DNA of 64,000 bases from Eledone cirrhosa. Taxonomy: Eukaryota. Under the pieces are notes generated by a model, which was not told the origin of the DNA, did no database searches, and saw only the letters and a program-made list of their open reading frames with translations. Below, piece after piece: positions 5,711 through 63,431 of this stretch; positions within the stretch are counted from its first letter, which is position 1; each line of letters starts with the position of its first letter. The translations under genes were made by a program, and so were the position numbers. The stretch lies in contig OZ024740.1 of assembly GCA_964016885.1 (NCBI GenBank), forward strand, positions 177,134,001-177,198,000, written 5' to 3'.

Positions 5711-6403
5711 TAGTATGAGGTAGTCAAACTATTCCTCTCTCTTTATGTGTTGTGACAGAATCGTAGAAATGTATATATAGATTACAGGACACTGTTTAAC
5801 TATCTTATTAGATATTGTGACCCCAAATGGACCAGCAGTGTTTTCAGCAGGGATTGAAACTGGGGATCCATTTCAGAAATTAATTTATCCAATCCACGTC
5901 GACTATGTACCATTCTAGGTGTGTAGTTTGAGTGGAAGCTAGAGGTGATAGGTAGATAGGTAAGCAAATAGCTGCATAGATAGGTAGATAGATGTAATAA
6001 CTGTGGTTAAAAGTAAAATGTCGTATGGCTCTCTAACAGATATCTTTCTTTATTGTTTATTTATAATCATAGAATTGGCCAGAGGAAAAATATGGCAAAT
6101 AGGTGAATATCAGAACTTTAAAAAAAAAGGAGACGTGAGTGATGTTAGAATTGTTGATCAGGGAGTGCCATAAAAACTTTTTCTGGAGACAAAATATTAG
6201 GATGAGGTTAAGTGTTTGGGTGTAATAGGAAACATGTAAAGGAGATATTGATAGACCTGCAGTCTGGTCGAAGGCAAACGGACTGATTTGAAGAATTGGG
6301 ATAGCGAATTAATGACTAGTATGTGAAGGTTTAGTGAGAAAGGATGAGTTGCTCTTCCTTCTAGAGGCGCGAATCCAGAGGTTTCGGTGCTGGAAACTTT
6401 GTA

Positions 6404-6460
6404 TTTTATCTGATGAGGGCGTTACAAAATTTTGGTACCTTTGAAATATATATAATAGAA
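6404..6460 (+). ncRNA. Type I hammerhead ribozyme motif (family A)
   Basis: ttttat-CTGATGA-stem II-GAA-ATATATAT-A-atagaa; same family as 9230-9286 and 56480-56540. Confidence 0.7.
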
Positions 6461-6501
6461 TAAATATGGTTTTATAAATATAGTTTCCATGTATTTAATA
6501 T

Positions 6502-6558
<57 letters not shown>

Positions 6559-6819: not shown

Positions 6820-6862
6820 ACGCTGAACTAGTTTCAAGCTTATTAGCTATCGTCAGCATCGT
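6820..6862 (-). ncRNA. Type I hammerhead ribozyme (family B, GUU site)
   Basis: reverse complement: acgatg-CTGACGA-tagctaataagctt-GAAAC-ta-GTT-cagcgt. Confidence 0.75.
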
Positions 6863-7173
6863 ATACCTTCCTGCCAGGTGATTATATATATATATATATA
6901 TATAAACGGAAAAAAATGAAGCAAAATTTCATTTCCCACTCTTAGTACGGCTGTTACTTAAATATAAGTATGTATATGTACATACATATATGTATACAGA
7001 CGTACAGTAGTATGTATACATATATACATACATGCACACATATATATATGTACGTATGGATTCACCGAACATTTATTATAATGCTCTGTGTGTTTGTAAA
7101 AAAACAAACATCCCGTATAAAGCCGCAGTGTCTAGCAACCACCGTTGCTCGTTTGTTCAACGCTGACAAAGGA

Positions 7174-7216
7174 ACGCTGTACTAGTTTCAAGCTTGTTAG
7201 CTATCGTCAGCAACGT
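7174..7216 (-). ncRNA. Type I hammerhead ribozyme (family B, intact)
   Basis: reverse complement: acgttg-CTGACGA-tAGCTaacaAGCTt-GAAAC-ta-GTA-cagcgt; 6-bp stem I, palindromic stem III ACTAGT. Confidence 0.9.
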
Positions 7217-7781
7217 ATACCTTCCTGCCAGATTGTTGAACGTCCGAAAGTATATACTTTCCTTATGCATTTTAACGGCTGAGTAGCCCAATTTGCATAT
7301 CGAGTGGGTTAATCGGTCGGGTGCACCGAAAACGATAAACGGAAAAAATGAAACGATAGCTAACAAACTTGAAACTAGTACAGCGTTCCTTTGTCAGTGT
7401 TGAACAAACGAGCAACGGTGGTTGCTAGACACTACGGCTTTATACGGGATGTTTGTTTACAAACACACCGAGCATTATAATAAATGTTTGGTGAATCCAT
7501 ACGTACATATATATATATATATATATATGTGCATGTATGTATATATGTATACATACTACTGTACGTCTGTATACATATATGTATGTACGTGTACATACTT
7601 ATATTTAAGTAACAGCCGTACTAAGAGTGGGAAATGAAATTTCGTTTCATTTTTTCCGTTTATCGTGTTCAGTGCACCCGGCCGATTAACCCACTCGATA
7701 TGCAAATTGGGCTACTCAGCCGTTAATATGCATAAGGAAAGTATATACTTTCGGATGTTCAACAATCTGGCAGGAAGGTAT

Positions 7782-7824
7782 ACGTTGCTGACGATAGTTA
7801 ACAAGCTTGAAACTAGTACAGCGT
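7782..7824 (+). ncRNA. Type I hammerhead ribozyme (family B, intact)
   Basis: acgttg-CTGACGA-tagttaacaagctt-GAAAC-ta-GTA-cagcgt; predicted cleavage after 7818. Confidence 0.9.
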
Positions 7825-8047
7825 TCCTTTGTCAGTGTTGAACAAATGAGCAACGGTGGTTGCTAGACACTGCGTTTTATACGGGATGTTTGTTTACAAA
7901 CACACCGAGCATTATAATAAATGTTTGGTGAATCCATACGTACATATATATATGTGTGCATGTATGTATATATGTATACATACTACTGTACGTCTGTATA
8001 CATATATGTATGTACGTATACATACTTATATATATATATATATATAT

Positions 8048-8150
<103 letters not shown>

Positions 8151-8514
8151 GACAGACACTGATATAAACATACAGATAGATGCATAAATAGAGAGTTTAC
8201 TGCTGCTAAGTAAATTTCTTCGATGAGTAGCAATGAGAAAAAATAGACACAAAAGTTACACATTGTAGATAAACACAGAAAACAGGCATGACAAAAGAAA
8301 ATCTTTGGTAGAGCATTTTTCAGACCTACTGAATCGAAGTAAGGGAGTTAATCATGCATGAACAATTAACACCCATTAGCTATTCAGATGAATTAAGCAA
8401 CATTATAGTAGTTTAGTATCTAAGTTTGGGAAAAATCAAATAAATAAGGAAAGCAAATATCCCCCTTTCTATTATTTTATTTCTTTTATCATTTCCACAC
8501 ATACACACACAACA

Positions 8515-8567
<53 letters not shown>

Positions 8568-8571
8568 TTAC

Positions 8572-8623
<52 letters not shown>

Positions 8624-8801
8624 CAAATATATATGTATACACACACATATATATATATATATACATATGATATACATCATATATATAAATGTGTGTGCGT
8701 GTGTGTGTGTAAAAATGTCCATGCACCTGTATGTTTATGCGCGTTTGATACAACCATATATTTAATTCTTATTGTGTTATATGTATGTGTGTGCGTGTAT
8801 A

Positions 8802-9045
<244 letters not shown>

Positions 9046-9046
9046 A

Positions 9047-9086
<40 letters not shown>

Positions 9087-9089
<3 letters not shown>

Positions 9090-9393
9090 AGCAAAAGGGA
9101 TATTTAATTTGTTGGTAATTCAACAAATATATATGTTTATACCTGATTCGAAGCACTCGACATATTTTCTGGAGTATATTATCGATGATATAAAAATAAA
9201 TGGAAACTATATTTATAAAACCATATTTATTCTATTATATATATTTCAAGGGTACCAAAACTTTGGTACGCACTCATCAGATAAAATACAAAGTTTGTTT
9301 TATAAATAGTGACATGTCCAGGAAGAAGATCTTAACGGTTCAAGTTTTTCAGGAAAAACCCGAACCGTTAAGATCTTCTTCCTGGATATGTCA

Positions 9394-9395
<2 letters not shown>
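9087..9395 (-). mobile_element. Family A hammerhead element with 5' fold-back hairpin, inserted in (TA)n
   Basis: HHR at 9230-9286; palindrome 9310-9393 with 41-bp arms and AG loop; homologous to 56405-56673. Confidence 0.8.
9230..9286 (-). ncRNA. Type I hammerhead ribozyme (family A)
   Basis: reverse complement: ttttat-CTGATGA-gtgcGTACCAAAgtTTTGGTACcctt-GAA-ATATATAT-A-atagaa. Confidence 0.8.
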
Positions 9396-9486
<91 letters not shown>

Positions 9487-9629: not shown

Positions 9630-9678
9630 ATAGTACCACTGATGATGTTGCAGATGTGCAACGAAAGAACGTTACTAT
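9630..9678 (+). ncRNA. Hammerhead-like motif
   Basis: CTGATGA-t-GTTGCA gatg TGCAAC-GAAAG-aacgtta-ctat; strong stem II, stems I and III irregular. Confidence 0.5.
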
Positions 9679-24339: not shown

Positions 24340-26240
24340 CTAAAAGAAACCAAAGAACGCTTACATACTCAAACAGTCTTTATTTGCTTACAATGTTTCA
24401 TCCATACCTTTGGGTAGATATCATCAGAGCTTAATAAACACACTGCTGAGTATAAGCTCTACCAAGCTTAGTCACACGAACAATCAGAATACAATAGAGG
24501 GTAAAGATAGGGAGATCGGAGATGGCGAATAAGGAGAGAGTACATGCTGGGGTTGTTAAGCACCACAGCTCAATGCTAGGGCACAAGCAGATCTCATAAG
24601 ATGCAGATACAATTGATGGCACACAAAATCAAAAAATACAAACAATGCTTAAAACATAATTAAAAAATAATAAAAAAGTAAAAGTAAGATAATATAAAGA
24701 GATAAAAGTGAATAAAAAGGTAAAAGATTTTTTTTTTTTAATTTTAAAAGGGAAAGAAGTGAAAAAAGAAAGTAGAAAAAAGAAAAAAGAAAAAAGAAAG
24801 AGTTTTAAGCACATAAAAAAGCCAGAGAAATTTAAGCGATGGTCCCTATATAAGTGAAAAGGATCTCAGTAACTTATAGTTATATAAGCACTAATATGTT
24901 CTTAAGGTACATCCAGAAAGACCACAGTAATTAAAATCCTCGCCATTGTATACATATACAAGGTATACTGGTAGGTACTTGAATTACGTAGCCCAAGAGT
25001 GTTCCACAAGCATATAGACAGGCAACACATAAATGCAAGCCATACACAAGCGAAGTGGGGTTATTACAGGATAGAGCAGAGTATAACAAGTATATAGACA
25101 GGCACCACAAATAAAGCAAGCTATACACAAGCAAAGAGGGGCTACTATAAGATAGAGCTGCAGCAAAAGCCCCACAATATTATTTCAGTTACTGTAAAAC
25201 CAACTGGCAAAGAGTTACTACACATGTATATTAACCGTATAGGCTAGACCAATCGGCCACATATGTCCCGATTGTCTAGGGGTTATATAGAAATAGGATT
25301 GTCATTAGGCAACCAACCAGTCCAAATTATACAACATATGTAGATCGGCAAAAGTAAAAAATAGTTGGATTTATACTATCACTTAAACATAACACCACAT
25401 CTAGTAACAAGAATTACATGCTGGATATATACATAAAAAACCCCTTAGGTTTAAGATCCCATATCGTATAGCATAATGTGTTCAAGTTTCAGCTCCTGAT
25501 TTTATATAACGAAAGTCTCCACACACAATCCAGTCACGAACACGTCAAAAATAATTCCTGGTAAAAGCAGCAGCAATCCGGACAGCACGTGGGTAAACAA
25601 TCCCGTATTTATAAATCTGGCTCTAAATAACATGTTACCTCGTTCATCGCCTCTAAGGGTATATTGTGGGGCTATTGCTGCAACTCTATCTTATAGTAAC
25701 TCCGCTTTGCGTGTGTATAGCTTGCTTTATATGTGGTGCCTGTCTATATACTTGTTATACTCTGCTCTATCCTGTAATAACCCCACTTCGCTTGTGTATG
25801 GCTTGCATTTATGTGTTGCCTGTCTATATGCTTGTGGAACACTCTTGGGCTACGTAATTCAAGTACCTACCAGTATACCTTGTATATGTATACAATGGCG
25901 AGGATTTTAATTACTGTGGTCTTTCTGGATGTACCTTAAGAACATATTAGTGCTTATATAACTATAAGTTACTGAGATCCTCTTCACTTATATAGGGACC
26001 ATCGCTTAAATTTCTCTGGCTTTTTTATGTGCTTAAAACTCTTTCTTTTTTCTTTTTTCTTTTTTCTACTTTCTTTTTTCATTTCTTTTCTTTTTAAAAT
26101 TAAAAAAAAAAAATCTTTTACCTTGTTATTCTCTTTATATTATCTTCCTTTTACTTTTTTATTATTTTTTAATTGTTTTAACCATTGTTTGTATTTTTTG
26201 ATTTTGTGTGCCATCAATTTTATCTGCATCTTGTGAGATA
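24340..26240. mobile_element. Penelope-like insertion with ~580-bp inverted arms
   Basis: 24591-25180 is the reverse complement of 25661-26239; HHR in the extended left arm; possible GIY-YIG remnant (Y.IGKSK) at ~25337; (TA)n at both ends. Confidence 0.8.
24386..24430 (-). ncRNA. Type I hammerhead ribozyme motif
   Basis: reverse complement: gct-CTGATGA-tATCtacccaaaggtatgGAT-GAAAC-att-GTA-agc. Confidence 0.7.
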
Positions 26241-45241: not shown

Positions 45242-45440
45242 TAGGAAAATGTTAGACCCCGACGGCAGAGCTCAAGCCGTTTCGACGGCTATTTCTGGAG
45301 TCCACAAATAGCCGTCGAAACGGCTTGAGCTCTGCCGTTGGGGTCTAACATTTTCCTAGTACCCACTCTGCTACCCTAATAATTGAGTACTCTGGTGCGT
45401 TATGGTTCATCTGGTTCCTTACCACACCTCCTTCGTTAAA
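45242..45440 (+). mobile_element. Fold-back PLE-like end in (TA)n
   Basis: 53-bp inverted arms 45242-45294 and 45306-45358; GAAAC next to the hairpin; ACTC..TTGAGTAC motif downstream. Confidence 0.7.
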
Positions 45441-55549: not shown

Positions 55550-56180
55550 ATATGTGTGTGTGTATTTACATACCCACAAGTTTCGTAACCCCATTTGTAT
55601 GACAGGATTTGTCTTGGACGCATGGGCCCTTTTAGCCAATAAATAAAGGATTGTTATTATTATTAATACTATTATTTAAAATATTCATTACTATTATTTT
55701 CCCATGGCAGACACAAACGAAATGTTATTTTCAAAAAGATGCAGGTATCCTTCGTGGGATTTTTACCGTATTAATTATGATTATAAAGACGCGCAATTTC
55801 ACACAAAAGCACCCACCCACATACAAACAGACACGCACATACACAGGCACACACAGGCATAAACACATACACACACAGATGAATGCACTCATTAATTTCA
55901 TGCTCACGAACTTATAAAATAGTCGAAAATATATACATGACTAGCCATAACCAGCCATATATGAAAAGTTTTTGTTTTGTACATATGAGTTGAATGACGG
56001 CACGTCAGTGTGGATGTCTATGCAAATACGTATGAGTGTATATGTAAGAGTTTATATGTATGCAAATATATATGTGTACATGTATGGGCAGATATGGAAT
56101 TTAATCATAATGACGAATATATATATGATGACGATGTGACTGCGTATTTGAGTATATACTAATATATACTTATAAATATG

Positions 56181-56220
<40 letters not shown>

Positions 56221-56225
<5 letters not shown>

Positions 56226-56670
56226 GATATTAACAAATGGAAACTATATTTATAAAACCATATCTATTTTATTATACATATTTCAAGGATACCATGTTAA
56301 ATTATGGTATGCTTTCATCAGACAAAATACAATATATACCAGTTTTATAAATAAATATTGACATAACCTTTCAAAATGCAACCGTTAGTTTTGGAAGACA
56401 TCAGGATGTCTTCCAAAACTAACGGTTGCATTTTGAAAGGGTATGTCAATATTTATTTATAAAACTGGTATATATTGTATTTTGTCTGATGAAAGCATAC
56501 CATAATTTAACATGGTATCCTTGAAATATGTATAATAAAATAGATATGGTTTTATAAATATAGTTTCCATTTGTTAATATCGTATATTTACTCCAAATAC
56601 TTGTCGAGTGCTTTATATCAGTTTATAAAAATATTTGCTTGTTGTATCCCAACAATTTAAATAGAACTTT

Positions 56671-56673
<3 letters not shown>
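56221..56673. mobile_element. Family A hammerhead element as a near-perfect palindrome with 182-bp arms, in (TA)n
   Basis: Arms 56221-56402 and 56405-56586, 2-nt AG loop, one mismatch seen; 3' extension to 56673. Confidence 0.9.
56480..56540 (+). ncRNA. Type I hammerhead ribozyme (mirror copy 56267-56327 on minus)
   Basis: ttttgt-CTGATGA-aagcATACCATaatttaacATGGTATcctt-GAA-ATATGTAT-A-ataaaa. Confidence 0.85.
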
Positions 56674-56764
<91 letters not shown>

Positions 56765-61811: not shown

Positions 61812-62263
61812 TATTTTCCGTTGTGTTGTAATATAAATATTACACACAGTAGATTATCAGCTCACGTAGAGTTTGCTCGACGGTTCCAGTTGTAGTTCCA
61901 AAAGTAATCCGGAGAAAAATAGAAAGATTTGAATGGATACAGTTTAGTTGAAAGGAATTTATTGACACGTGTTTCTATAACAGTTACATAACCTAAAACA
62001 GCTATCTACAAACTTTTAGTTATGCAGACATTCAATATTTCAATGTTATTATTTACTGTCATTTCATCAGAATAATATTACTGAGGACCTATTTAGTTTT
62101 TATAGAGAATATTAGGAGGGAGGGGTGAAGTTGTTAGAAGAATAGTTGAAGGAGTGGTTTTTTGATAGCAGTGAGAATTCTTGGTGGCAGTGAGTAATTA
62201 GATTCCCATCTGTTGTTTTTACATTTTTTATAGAATATATTATTGGTTATTTTTCTAAATCTA

Positions 62264-62425
62264 AGCTTTTCCAGGAGCCAAAATTTCTGCAAATTGTGTA
62301 ATCTTGAGATTTATTACATAATCACACACAAGAAGAAACTGCTGAATAACAGAATTGAACGAACATTATTCTGCCGTCACAGAACTAAAACCCTTTTTTC
62401 CCACTACAAGCCGAATATTACATAA
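62264..62425 (+). pseudogene. C-terminal tail of a PLE GIY-YIG endonuclease
   Basis: CKLCNLEIYYI...LLNNRIE....CRHRTK matches the C.LC..EK..I..LN.R.E....CRH pattern of invertebrate PLEs as I recall it. Confidence 0.7.
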
Positions 62426-62694
62426 AAGAGGGACATCCCCCAACTATATAAACCTTAATCAAGTTAGAAAAATATAAAAACAATCTCTTCTCAACATATA
62501 TTAATAACCTTAAATTACCACACTAATAATGGAAAGATATGCTGATGAGAATAGGTGCAAATATGCGATAATGAATGTGTCTAAACACGTCCATAAGTAT
62601 GTATATATATGCGAAAATGTATATAAATAAGTAAATATATATATATGTTGGATGTGTATAGTTAGATGTAGGTGTATTCATGTATTAAAGTGCT

Positions 62695-62758
<64 letters not shown>

Positions 62759-63313
62759 ATATGTGTATATAGATGTGTATGTATGTGTATGTGTGTACAC
62801 ATGGACTAGAGTATGTATGTATATATGTGTGTGTCTATACGTGTGTATATAAAGATAAGTTGAGTATGAAAATGTATACACATGAGCGCGTATGTATGTA
62901 CATGAATACATGTGTGTATATATATGTGTATGCATGTGTATATATATGTAAGTATGAATATGTGAATTGTGAGTATATGTATTTTGTAGAGGTGTGCAAA
63001 TATATTTGTGTGTGAATGCGTGGGTGAAAGGATACGTACACTTGAAAGAAAAATTTAAGTCTGAATGTTAATTAAGTGCAAACACAAAACCAACCACGCA
63101 TATCTTTACTATCTCTAATCCTTCTATAGATTTATAAAATAACCAATAATATATTCTATAAAAAATGTCAAAACAACAGATGGGAATCTAATTACTCACT
63201 GCCACCAAGAATTCTCACTGCTATCAAAAAACCACTCCTTCAACTATTCTTCTAACAACTTCACCCCTCCCTCCTAATATTCTCTATAAAAACTAAATAG
63301 GTCCTCAGTAATA

Positions 63314-63431
63314 TTATTCTGATGAAATGACAGTAAATAATAACATTGAAATATTGAATGTCTGCATAACTAAAAAGTTTGTAGATAGCTGTTTTAGGTT
63401 ATGTAACTGTTATAGAAACACGTGTCAATAA
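63314..63431 (+). ncRNA. Type I hammerhead with ~90-nt extended stem II (mirror 61959-62075 on minus)
   Basis: ttatt-CTGATGA-aATGACAGT...ACTGTTATa-GAA-ACACGTGT-C-aataa. Confidence 0.8.

Follow-up and report, generated by a model that had tools for sequence, protein, structure and literature searches.

A recognized hallmark of Penelope-like elements (PLEs) is the inverted, palindromic arrangement of their 5' ends, and in the excerpts consulted of Craig et al. 2021 (PMC8557442) the way in which these ends form is named as an open question. The same source provides the diagnostics of the Hydra clade of PLEs, comprising sequence motifs, a CxCX5C linker, a CxxC motif and a CxH motif. For Poseidon of Anolis (PAc), the consulted text of Frangieh et al. 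2024 (PMC11167929) describes nicking and extension of both target strands in vitro; two internal start sites bound the tail, and the protein is modelled as a dimer. In Penelope elements, the promoter has been placed within the pseudo-LTR (pLTR) (PMC2377424), and a TCACT initiator-like motif has been reported in the pLTRs (PMC3846280), again according to the parts of these papers that were consulted.

Here, we analyzed two hairpins in a microsatellite-rich window of animal DNA (the whole stretch of 64,000 nt analyzed, G000:C1:177134001-177198000, in a 3.0-Gb genome). An initial annotation had reported that two diverged copies of a repeat, family A, fold back at an equivalent position with the same C-AG-G apex. 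The coordinates and sequences it gave for both hairpins are correct. The first copy (c1) has an AG loop at 9351-9352 closed by the pair C9350-G9353, with 38 of 41 arm positions complementary, and the second (c2) has an AG loop at 56403-56404, with 182 of 183 arm positions complementary. The distances given also hold, the loops lying 41 and 44 nt from a tgacat box and 71 and 82 nt from a CTGATGA motif. A hairpin scan of the window (loops of up to 30 nt, simple repeats excluded) returned c1, c2 and one unrelated hairpin only. The latter, at 45242-45358, has 53-bp arms and an 11-nt loop and adjoins (TA)n; it may represent the same junction type in another family.

Both c1 and c2 sit within (TA)n (Table 1) and are members of two different subfamilies, A1 and A2, respectively. 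Their long arms match at 78% on opposite strands (BLAST), c1 being in minus and c2 in plus orientation. When the family was aligned, the direct arms of both copies were found to begin at one homologous base, 9 nt past the A of ACTATCC, which bears out the equivalent fold position; this first direct-arm base is coordinate 0 below. Because the two copies lie on opposite strands, however, the loops on the element strand read C-CT-G in c1 and C-AG-G in c2, and the apex is not the same one. The motif ACTATCC lies at -9 in both subfamilies and is followed by AG in A1 or CT in A2, the native bases there being CC-AG-G in A1 and CC-CT-G in A2. In each window copy, the loop reads as the reverse complement of the two bases native to that position, so the loop bases are extra, templated bases belonging to the inverted arm. 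The inverted arm of c1 is short, with an outer end at about +45, off the usual internal site, and stops at a conserved TGTCA box next to (TA)n. In the third family copy (c3), no inverted arm was seen, and the copy lacks a tail, stopping at the internal site.

Table 1. Family A copies and flanking (TA)n tracts in the window
Feature	Position	Strand	Remarks
c3, third family copy, A1 type	6394..6506	+	5'-truncated; hammerhead core at 6410
Target (TA)n tract at tail side of c1	8514..9087		
c1 direct arm	9088..9350	-	Subfamily A1 3' end: pLTR from position 0, hammerhead, tail
c1 hammerhead motif, type I, predicted	9228..9288	-	Predicted cleavage between 9236 and 9235
c1 inverted arm	9351..9393	+	41 bp plus 2-nt loop (complement of native AG)
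(TA)n tract beside c1 inverted arm	9394..9484		
(TA)n tract beside c2 inverted arm	56153..56224		
c2 inverted arm	56220..56404	-	Internal site (+182/185) to apex, AG loop (complement of native CT) included
Mirror hammerhead in c2 inverted arm	56265-56329		
c2 direct arm	56405..56673	+	Subfamily A2: pLTR from position 0 to tail
c2 hammerhead motif, type I, predicted	56478..56542	+	Predicted cleavage after 56534
c2 85-nt tail	56587..56673	+	Between inferred RT start sites +182/185 and +270; direct arm only
Target (TA)n tract at tail side of c2	56674..56764		

Family A represents the 3' end of an endonuclease-bearing (EN+) Penelope-like retrotransposon, with its pseudo-LTR, hammerhead ribozyme and 85-nt tail, and the c1 and c2 hairpins are 5'-truncated, head-to-head insertions of this element in (TA)n. 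In genomic copies the element sequence extends upstream of the apex, and longer copies include an ORF. Of 150 scored RT matches, 20 were fetched, picked for long open frames. In these loci, a pLTR and a tail were followed by an ORF of up to 742 aa, a 3' UTR and a further pLTR with its end at +185 or +270, many of the loci also having inverted copies; the pseudo-LTRs thus show the partial tandem or inverted arrangement, with optional tail, of EN+ Penelope-like elements. The element is about 4 kb long with a 3' UTR of 1.3-1.6 kb, and its near-full copies, located outside the window, code for an RT/GIY-YIG protein of 742 aa. This single ORF carries YRDD in a telomerase-like RT, and the top three Foldseek matches of its predicted structure (pLDDT 87.8) are TERT. 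The GIY-YIG endonuclease is C-terminal, with a conserved Y..YiG, R, E, N pattern at residues 620-720. Among the ESM Atlas neighbours (0.96-0.97), PF01541 is found in 31-50% of members; PF26215 is common among homologs of the protein, and PF00078 occurs in one homolog row. Sequence searches of Pfam and PDB, started from the ORF or from an alignment of it, gave no RT or GIY-YIG match, and the RT/GIY-YIG identity is drawn instead from motifs, neighbours and the predicted fold.

On its motifs, the element is assigned to the Hydra clade: RWR is present at residues 38-40 (RWK in homologs) and DKT at 118-120, the CxCX5C linker is C601-C603-C609, and CxxC (C699-C702) and CxH (C727-H729) are present, flanking E and N. 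Insertion into (TA)n, as in the Hydra clade, was seen in the window flanks and at most sampled loci. The Neptune and Nematis clades (CX2-5CxxC linker, CCHH motif) were rejected on the linker, which is CxCX5C here, and the Naiad clade (N-terminal endonuclease, no hammerhead) because the endonuclease is C-terminal and a hammerhead is present. Exact matches to the tail motif occur at no fewer than 1,522 places genome-wide for A2 and at least 364 for A1. Similarity between the subfamilies starts at ACTATCC, and A1 copies retain ORF remnants 40-56% identical to the endonuclease end of A2. The element itself is a high-copy, ordinary member of a described clade, with an inverted end of known type. 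Family A copies often cluster within one microsatellite; at L259 (G000:C1:376086641-376089666), for example, an A2 hairpin copy lies beside an A1 tail with a short (TA)n run between them. One ORF (L192:1975-4200) has a low-confidence Asn-rich insert at residues 480-512, between the RT thumb and the linker, which recalls the N-rich inserts of Adineta Penelope ORFs described in the consulted part of PMC3846280.

The CTGATGA motif is the core of a type I hammerhead motif with an 8-bp stem I, stem II, GAAA and a tiny palindromic stem III, in line with the small palindromic helix III described in the excerpt consulted of PMC4209133. Across 397 hammerhead matches in the fetched loci, the eight stem I pairs were kept in 97-99%, with G-U/A-U swaps between subfamilies. 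An Rfam scan of the window gave no match at gathering score, and z-scores for hammerhead folding (MFE) were not significant. Hammerhead-like cores also occur in the window outside family A. A second inverted-repeat family at 7124-7874, probably another Penelope-like pLTR, has CTGACGA...GAAA cores at 6856(-), 7210(-) and 7788(+), and a 240-bp perfect inverted repeat at 62014-63375 has a CTGATGA...GAAA core in each arm, at 62070(-) and 63319(+). A loose pattern found others at 9639(+), 10028(-), 18597(+), 23714(-), 24427(-) and 30511(-). At 24705-26136 lies a 476-bp inverted repeat (97%) with an internal 81-nt tandem.

For the distribution of arm ends, 157 copies (89 A2 and 68 A1) were picked by the tail motif alone, so the sampling was blind to the apex. 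The A2 sample was drawn from the first 100 of 1,522 tail matches listed, all on contig C1; with the window copy, L017 and the last 7 rows left out and two adjacent rows merged into one locus, it comprised 90 loci, or 89 after a duplicate (L109) was dropped. The A1 sample was drawn from the first 71 of 364 tail matches, one of which had already been fetched and was skipped, giving 70 loci and, after two duplicates were dropped, 68. Arm ends were called by BLAST and are uncertain by a few bases, and inverted arms shorter than 18 nt are missed. An inverted arm was present in 58 of the 89 A2 copies and 40 of the 68 A1 copies. Junction positions across the 157 copies ranged from beyond -1300 to +185, and both arms ended within -12 to +10 in 8/58 A2 and 11/40 A1 copies, leaving 19/98 near-symmetric at this hotspot. 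With junctions spread and few copies symmetric, the apex is not fixed. Nevertheless, when the ends of both arms were pooled, 31 A2 and 39 A1 ends fell within -10 to 0 (70 ends in 11 nt), compared with 4 and 2 within -40 to -11 (6 in the 30 nt upstream; P values of the pile-up, 3e-14 for A2 and 2e-20 for A1); 52 A2 and 33 A1 ends fell within +11 to +150. The distribution of arm ends is thus clearly non-random, with a hotspot at one boundary. The arms were joined through microhomology in 28 A2 and 15 A1 copies, bluntly in 9 and 4, and with inserts in 21 and 21. Whether one arm ended in the hotspot showed no significant link to whether the other did (Fisher P values, 0.35 and 0.32), which speaks neither for nor against a single-cDNA snap-back.

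In both subfamilies, the upstream edge of the pile-up is the A of the conserved ACTATCC (-9), and genome-wide A2 ends gave 249 matches at -9 versus 96 at -8. This A, which falls on an initiator-like YYACT conserved across subfamilies, is likely the 5' end of the element RNA, as judged from the DNA ends. Direct arms starting beyond -300 were found in 20/157 copies, which need RNAs reading through from an upstream unit. We think it improbable that the arms are joined in the same manner while the -9 edge reflects RNA processing or a strong stop of RT rather than a transcription start. Such a reading draws on the fact that the RNA start is read only from DNA ends and that the counts of an extra C past the end, as might derive from a cap, are alike at -9 and -8 in A2: among 100 listed ends at -9, the next base was C in 36, A in 38 and T in 26, and C was found in 31/96 of the -8 controls. 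In A1, C outnumbered T by 28 to 8 among 100 listed, the remaining 64 G rows being mostly native read-through of another subfamily; the cap-base count is weakened in that most inspected Cs after -9 could derive from the partner arm. The A1 pyrimidine tract with CAG/G at position 0 also resembles a splice acceptor, but the edge is at -9 and not at 0, AG is absent in most A2 subfamilies, and the initiator-like motif at the edge is the part that is kept. A splice acceptor at position 0 was accordingly rejected as the edge, being unconserved and 9 nt away. The predicted hammerhead cleavage site lies about 130-140 nt downstream, so ribozyme cleavage is not the source of the -9 end and was rejected as what sets the apex. 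About 20-30 nt downstream of the putative RNA start, an 8-mer, AACCGTTA, is found at 9332-9339 and 56420-56427, in opposite orientations in the two subfamilies. We take the 8-mer to resemble a Myb-type site and, in copies with an ACGTCA variant, the tgacat box to resemble a CRE half-site; both are possible candidates for downstream promoter elements.

The loop sequences at symmetric apexes were then compared between subfamilies. In the first 50 of 80 A2 loci, a 2-nt AG/CT loop was found in 19 (window copy included) and a perfect GATATC-centred palindrome in 6. In the first 50 of 92 A1 loci, the modal apex was CC-A/T-GG, with a 3-nt CAG/CTG centre (24 loci), and the 2-nt AG/CT loop was found in none. 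The favoured apexes fall on small native palindromes within the initial 12 nt of the putative RNA, namely ATC-CT-GAT, GATATC or ATCCGGAT in A2 and TCC-A-GGA in A1; c2 is the commonest A2 outcome, and c1 is a variant of the commonest A1 outcome, one base shorter. On the element strand, seven fetched AG/CT loci read AG in 3 and CT in 3, the other being ambiguous. These loci carry differing subfamily variants, and the apex therefore arose more than once. A genome-wide search for the c1 core, with one mismatch allowed, found 4 places, only 1 of them with the exact core. Given this loop spectrum and the occurrence of both orientations, the match between c1 and c2 is real in position, and their shared AG loop is largely a coincidence of sequence.

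These findings bear on the proposal that the hairpin end is programmed. Non-random truncation, possibly at a fixed RNA 5' end, gains from the pile-up of ends just downstream of a sparse region, whereas a programmed hairpin with a fixed apex does not agree with the few copies in which both arms end near this place, nor with the varying loops. Tabulating the apexes over family A, as the initial annotation had suggested, therefore upheld a common boundary for the ends and not a constant junction or loop. A sequence-specific C-AG-G hairpin end, made in the manner of a resolvase or hairpin telomere, with the unit spreading as a whole palindrome, would account for the homologous junction base of the two window copies and for C-AG-G being the modal A2 apex. 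However, the window loops lie on opposite element strands as the complement of native bases, the loop is missing from the listed A1 apexes, the c1 core is exact only once in the genome, both orientations occur in different subfamily variants, and most junctions lie elsewhere; we give this explanation next to no credence. A hairpin-ended replicon and a fixed-structure fold-back element were likewise rejected because the apex varies across copies.

In contrast to the apex, the outer end of the inverted arm was well defined. It lay at +182 (+185 under default scoring) in 49/58 A2 copies and at +169 in 18/40 A1 copies, with 7 more at +160/+165 (25/40 at +160 to +169). Direct copies without a tail, c3 among them, end at the same internal site. 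The inverted arm extended further 5' than the direct arm in 36/58 A2 and 32/40 A1 copies (68/98 overall), and the direct arm extended further in 17/58 and 7/40 (24/98 overall). Later arm-arm recombination that flipped the centre could blur which arm was longer; three loci (L096, L071 and L070), however, consist of almost nothing but a tail joined to a long inverted arm, and with so little common sequence they cannot have come from later flipping. At L167 (G000:C1:162387368-162390393), a palindrome of two tails joined at a TA run was observed, and both arms can therefore start from the outer site.

The two arms of a copy were 98.8% alike in A2, compared with 94.1% to the median other copy, and pairs less alike than the median other copy numbered 0/38 in A2 and 3/18 in A1. 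An origin of the arms from two templates is thus not supported in A2. Arms from one source subfamily fit one RNA copied twice. The sequence comparison also speaks to two trivial origins, a fold-back artefact of reads or assembly and an inverted duplication arising after insertion. Repeat-rich assemblies can contain artefactual palindromes, but the arms here differ at 1/183 sites in c2 and 3/41 in c1, and dozens of distinct loci with differing flanks share these outer and inner ends, so that an artefact or duplication of this kind seems extremely improbable.

Collectively, these findings make it probable that the inverted ends arise by twin priming, in which both nicked (TA)n strands prime RT on one RNA and the 3' ends of the two cDNAs are joined. 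To the observed element anatomy, end distributions, loop spectra and same-source arms, this model adds an RNA start, a priming order and a joining step that we infer as follows. The element RNA would start at the A of ACTATCC, an initiator-like site. RT would be primed at +185 by one target strand and at +270 by its partner, with a TA match of a few bases assisting. Each cDNA would extend as far as the RNA 5' end or stop before it, the tail-primed cDNA stopping early more often, and the two cDNA ends would anneal by microhomology, each templating the second strand of the other. Where both cDNAs reach the 5' end, annealing at the tiny native palindromes would give the recurrent near-perfect hairpin.

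Two other routes to the inverted arm start from a single cDNA or from an antisense template. It is unlikely, though deserving of more weight than the other alternatives, that a single cDNA copied to the RNA 5' end folds on a native palindrome and self-primes, the resulting hairpin DNA intermediate being integrated. The modal apexes do lie exactly on native mini-palindromes (among the loci listed, 19/50 AG/CT and 6/50 perfect in A2 and 24/50 in A1), and the common source of the arms fits such a snap-back equally well. Yet snap-back of a tail-primed cDNA cannot make the inverted arm reach further 5' than the direct arm, as in 68/98 copies, and snap-back of a +185-primed cDNA can supply neither the tail nor the 24/98 opposite cases; no single snap-back therefore yields both, and near-symmetric copies at the hotspot are only 19/98. 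The hairpin DNA intermediate that had been proposed still fits this symmetric minority and leaves the asymmetric majority unexplained. For Adineta Penelope elements, self-priming with antisense RNA as the template has been proposed, and in the consulted part of PMC3846280 it explains the palindromes at inverted junctions. It predicts neither two fixed outer ends on (TA)n nor many asymmetric joins, and in vitro sense RNA is copied from internal starts on both strands (PMC11167929, excerpts consulted); we regard it as very unlikely here.

Twin priming on one sense RNA therefore remains our preferred explanation. Whether it holds more widely is, in our view, evenly balanced: fixed-site twin priming would build the inverted pseudo-LTRs of PLEs, a dimeric RT making two copies of a single RNA, each from its own set internal site and on a different target strand, back to the capped start, with cross-templating of the cDNAs replacing second-strand synthesis. 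The apex would then mark the transcription start in the genome, so that any high-copy PLE family could be read for it from DNA alone. In a literature search covering sources other than subscription journals and supplements, we found no paper giving a twin-priming junction model for the inverted junction. The pattern of fold points suggests how Penelope-like elements build inverted ends, and the value of the finding lies in the junction counts more than in the element itself. Family A has enough young copies for junctions to be counted, which makes the question of PLE inverted ends testable. By these counts, tail, inverted arm and apex are linked to three fixed positions on the RNA; the counts also speak against the published idea of antisense self-priming. 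The 742-aa ORFs are nearly intact and the target, (TA)n, is simple, so the twin-priming model can be tested in the existing in vitro system.

In twin priming of LINE-1, both target strands prime on one RNA and the cDNAs join by microhomology, the inverted part being an adjacent, non-overlapping segment from a variable internal site. Unlike in LINE-1, the two cDNAs of family A would span one and the same stretch, starting from two fixed sites, and so form a palindrome. The Hydra clade, as described in the excerpts of PMC8557442, resembles family A in having a single ORF with RT followed by GIY-YIG, RWK-type, DKT, CxCX5C, CxxC and CxH motifs, a hammerhead, (TA)n insertion, partial tandems, an inverted 5'-truncated copy and a one-sided tail. 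It differs in being "generally <3 kb" (about 4 kb here), in a tail of 30-40 nt (85 nt here) and in RWK, which is RWR in family A; copy number also sets family A apart, with two subfamilies of at least 1,522 and at least 364 exact tail matches, and no junction map was found in these excerpts. PAc likewise has two internal RT starts bounding the tail, extension of both strands, an AT-rich target and a hammerhead that does not mark insertion ends, but its start sites are inside the ORF, whereas those of family A lie upstream of the ATG (the outer one by about 43 nt) and end in a few TA bases that match the target; the inverted junction is not modelled for PAc in the consulted text of PMC11167929. 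The Penelope elements of Adineta vaga and Drosophila virilis share with family A the inverted pLTRs, junction palindromes, a TCACT initiator-like motif, a promoter inside the pLTR and microhomology at 5' junctions (PMC3846280 and PMC2377424, in the parts consulted). Those accounts treat few copies and offer antisense self-priming or no mechanism, whereas the counts presented here favour two cDNAs made from sense RNA.
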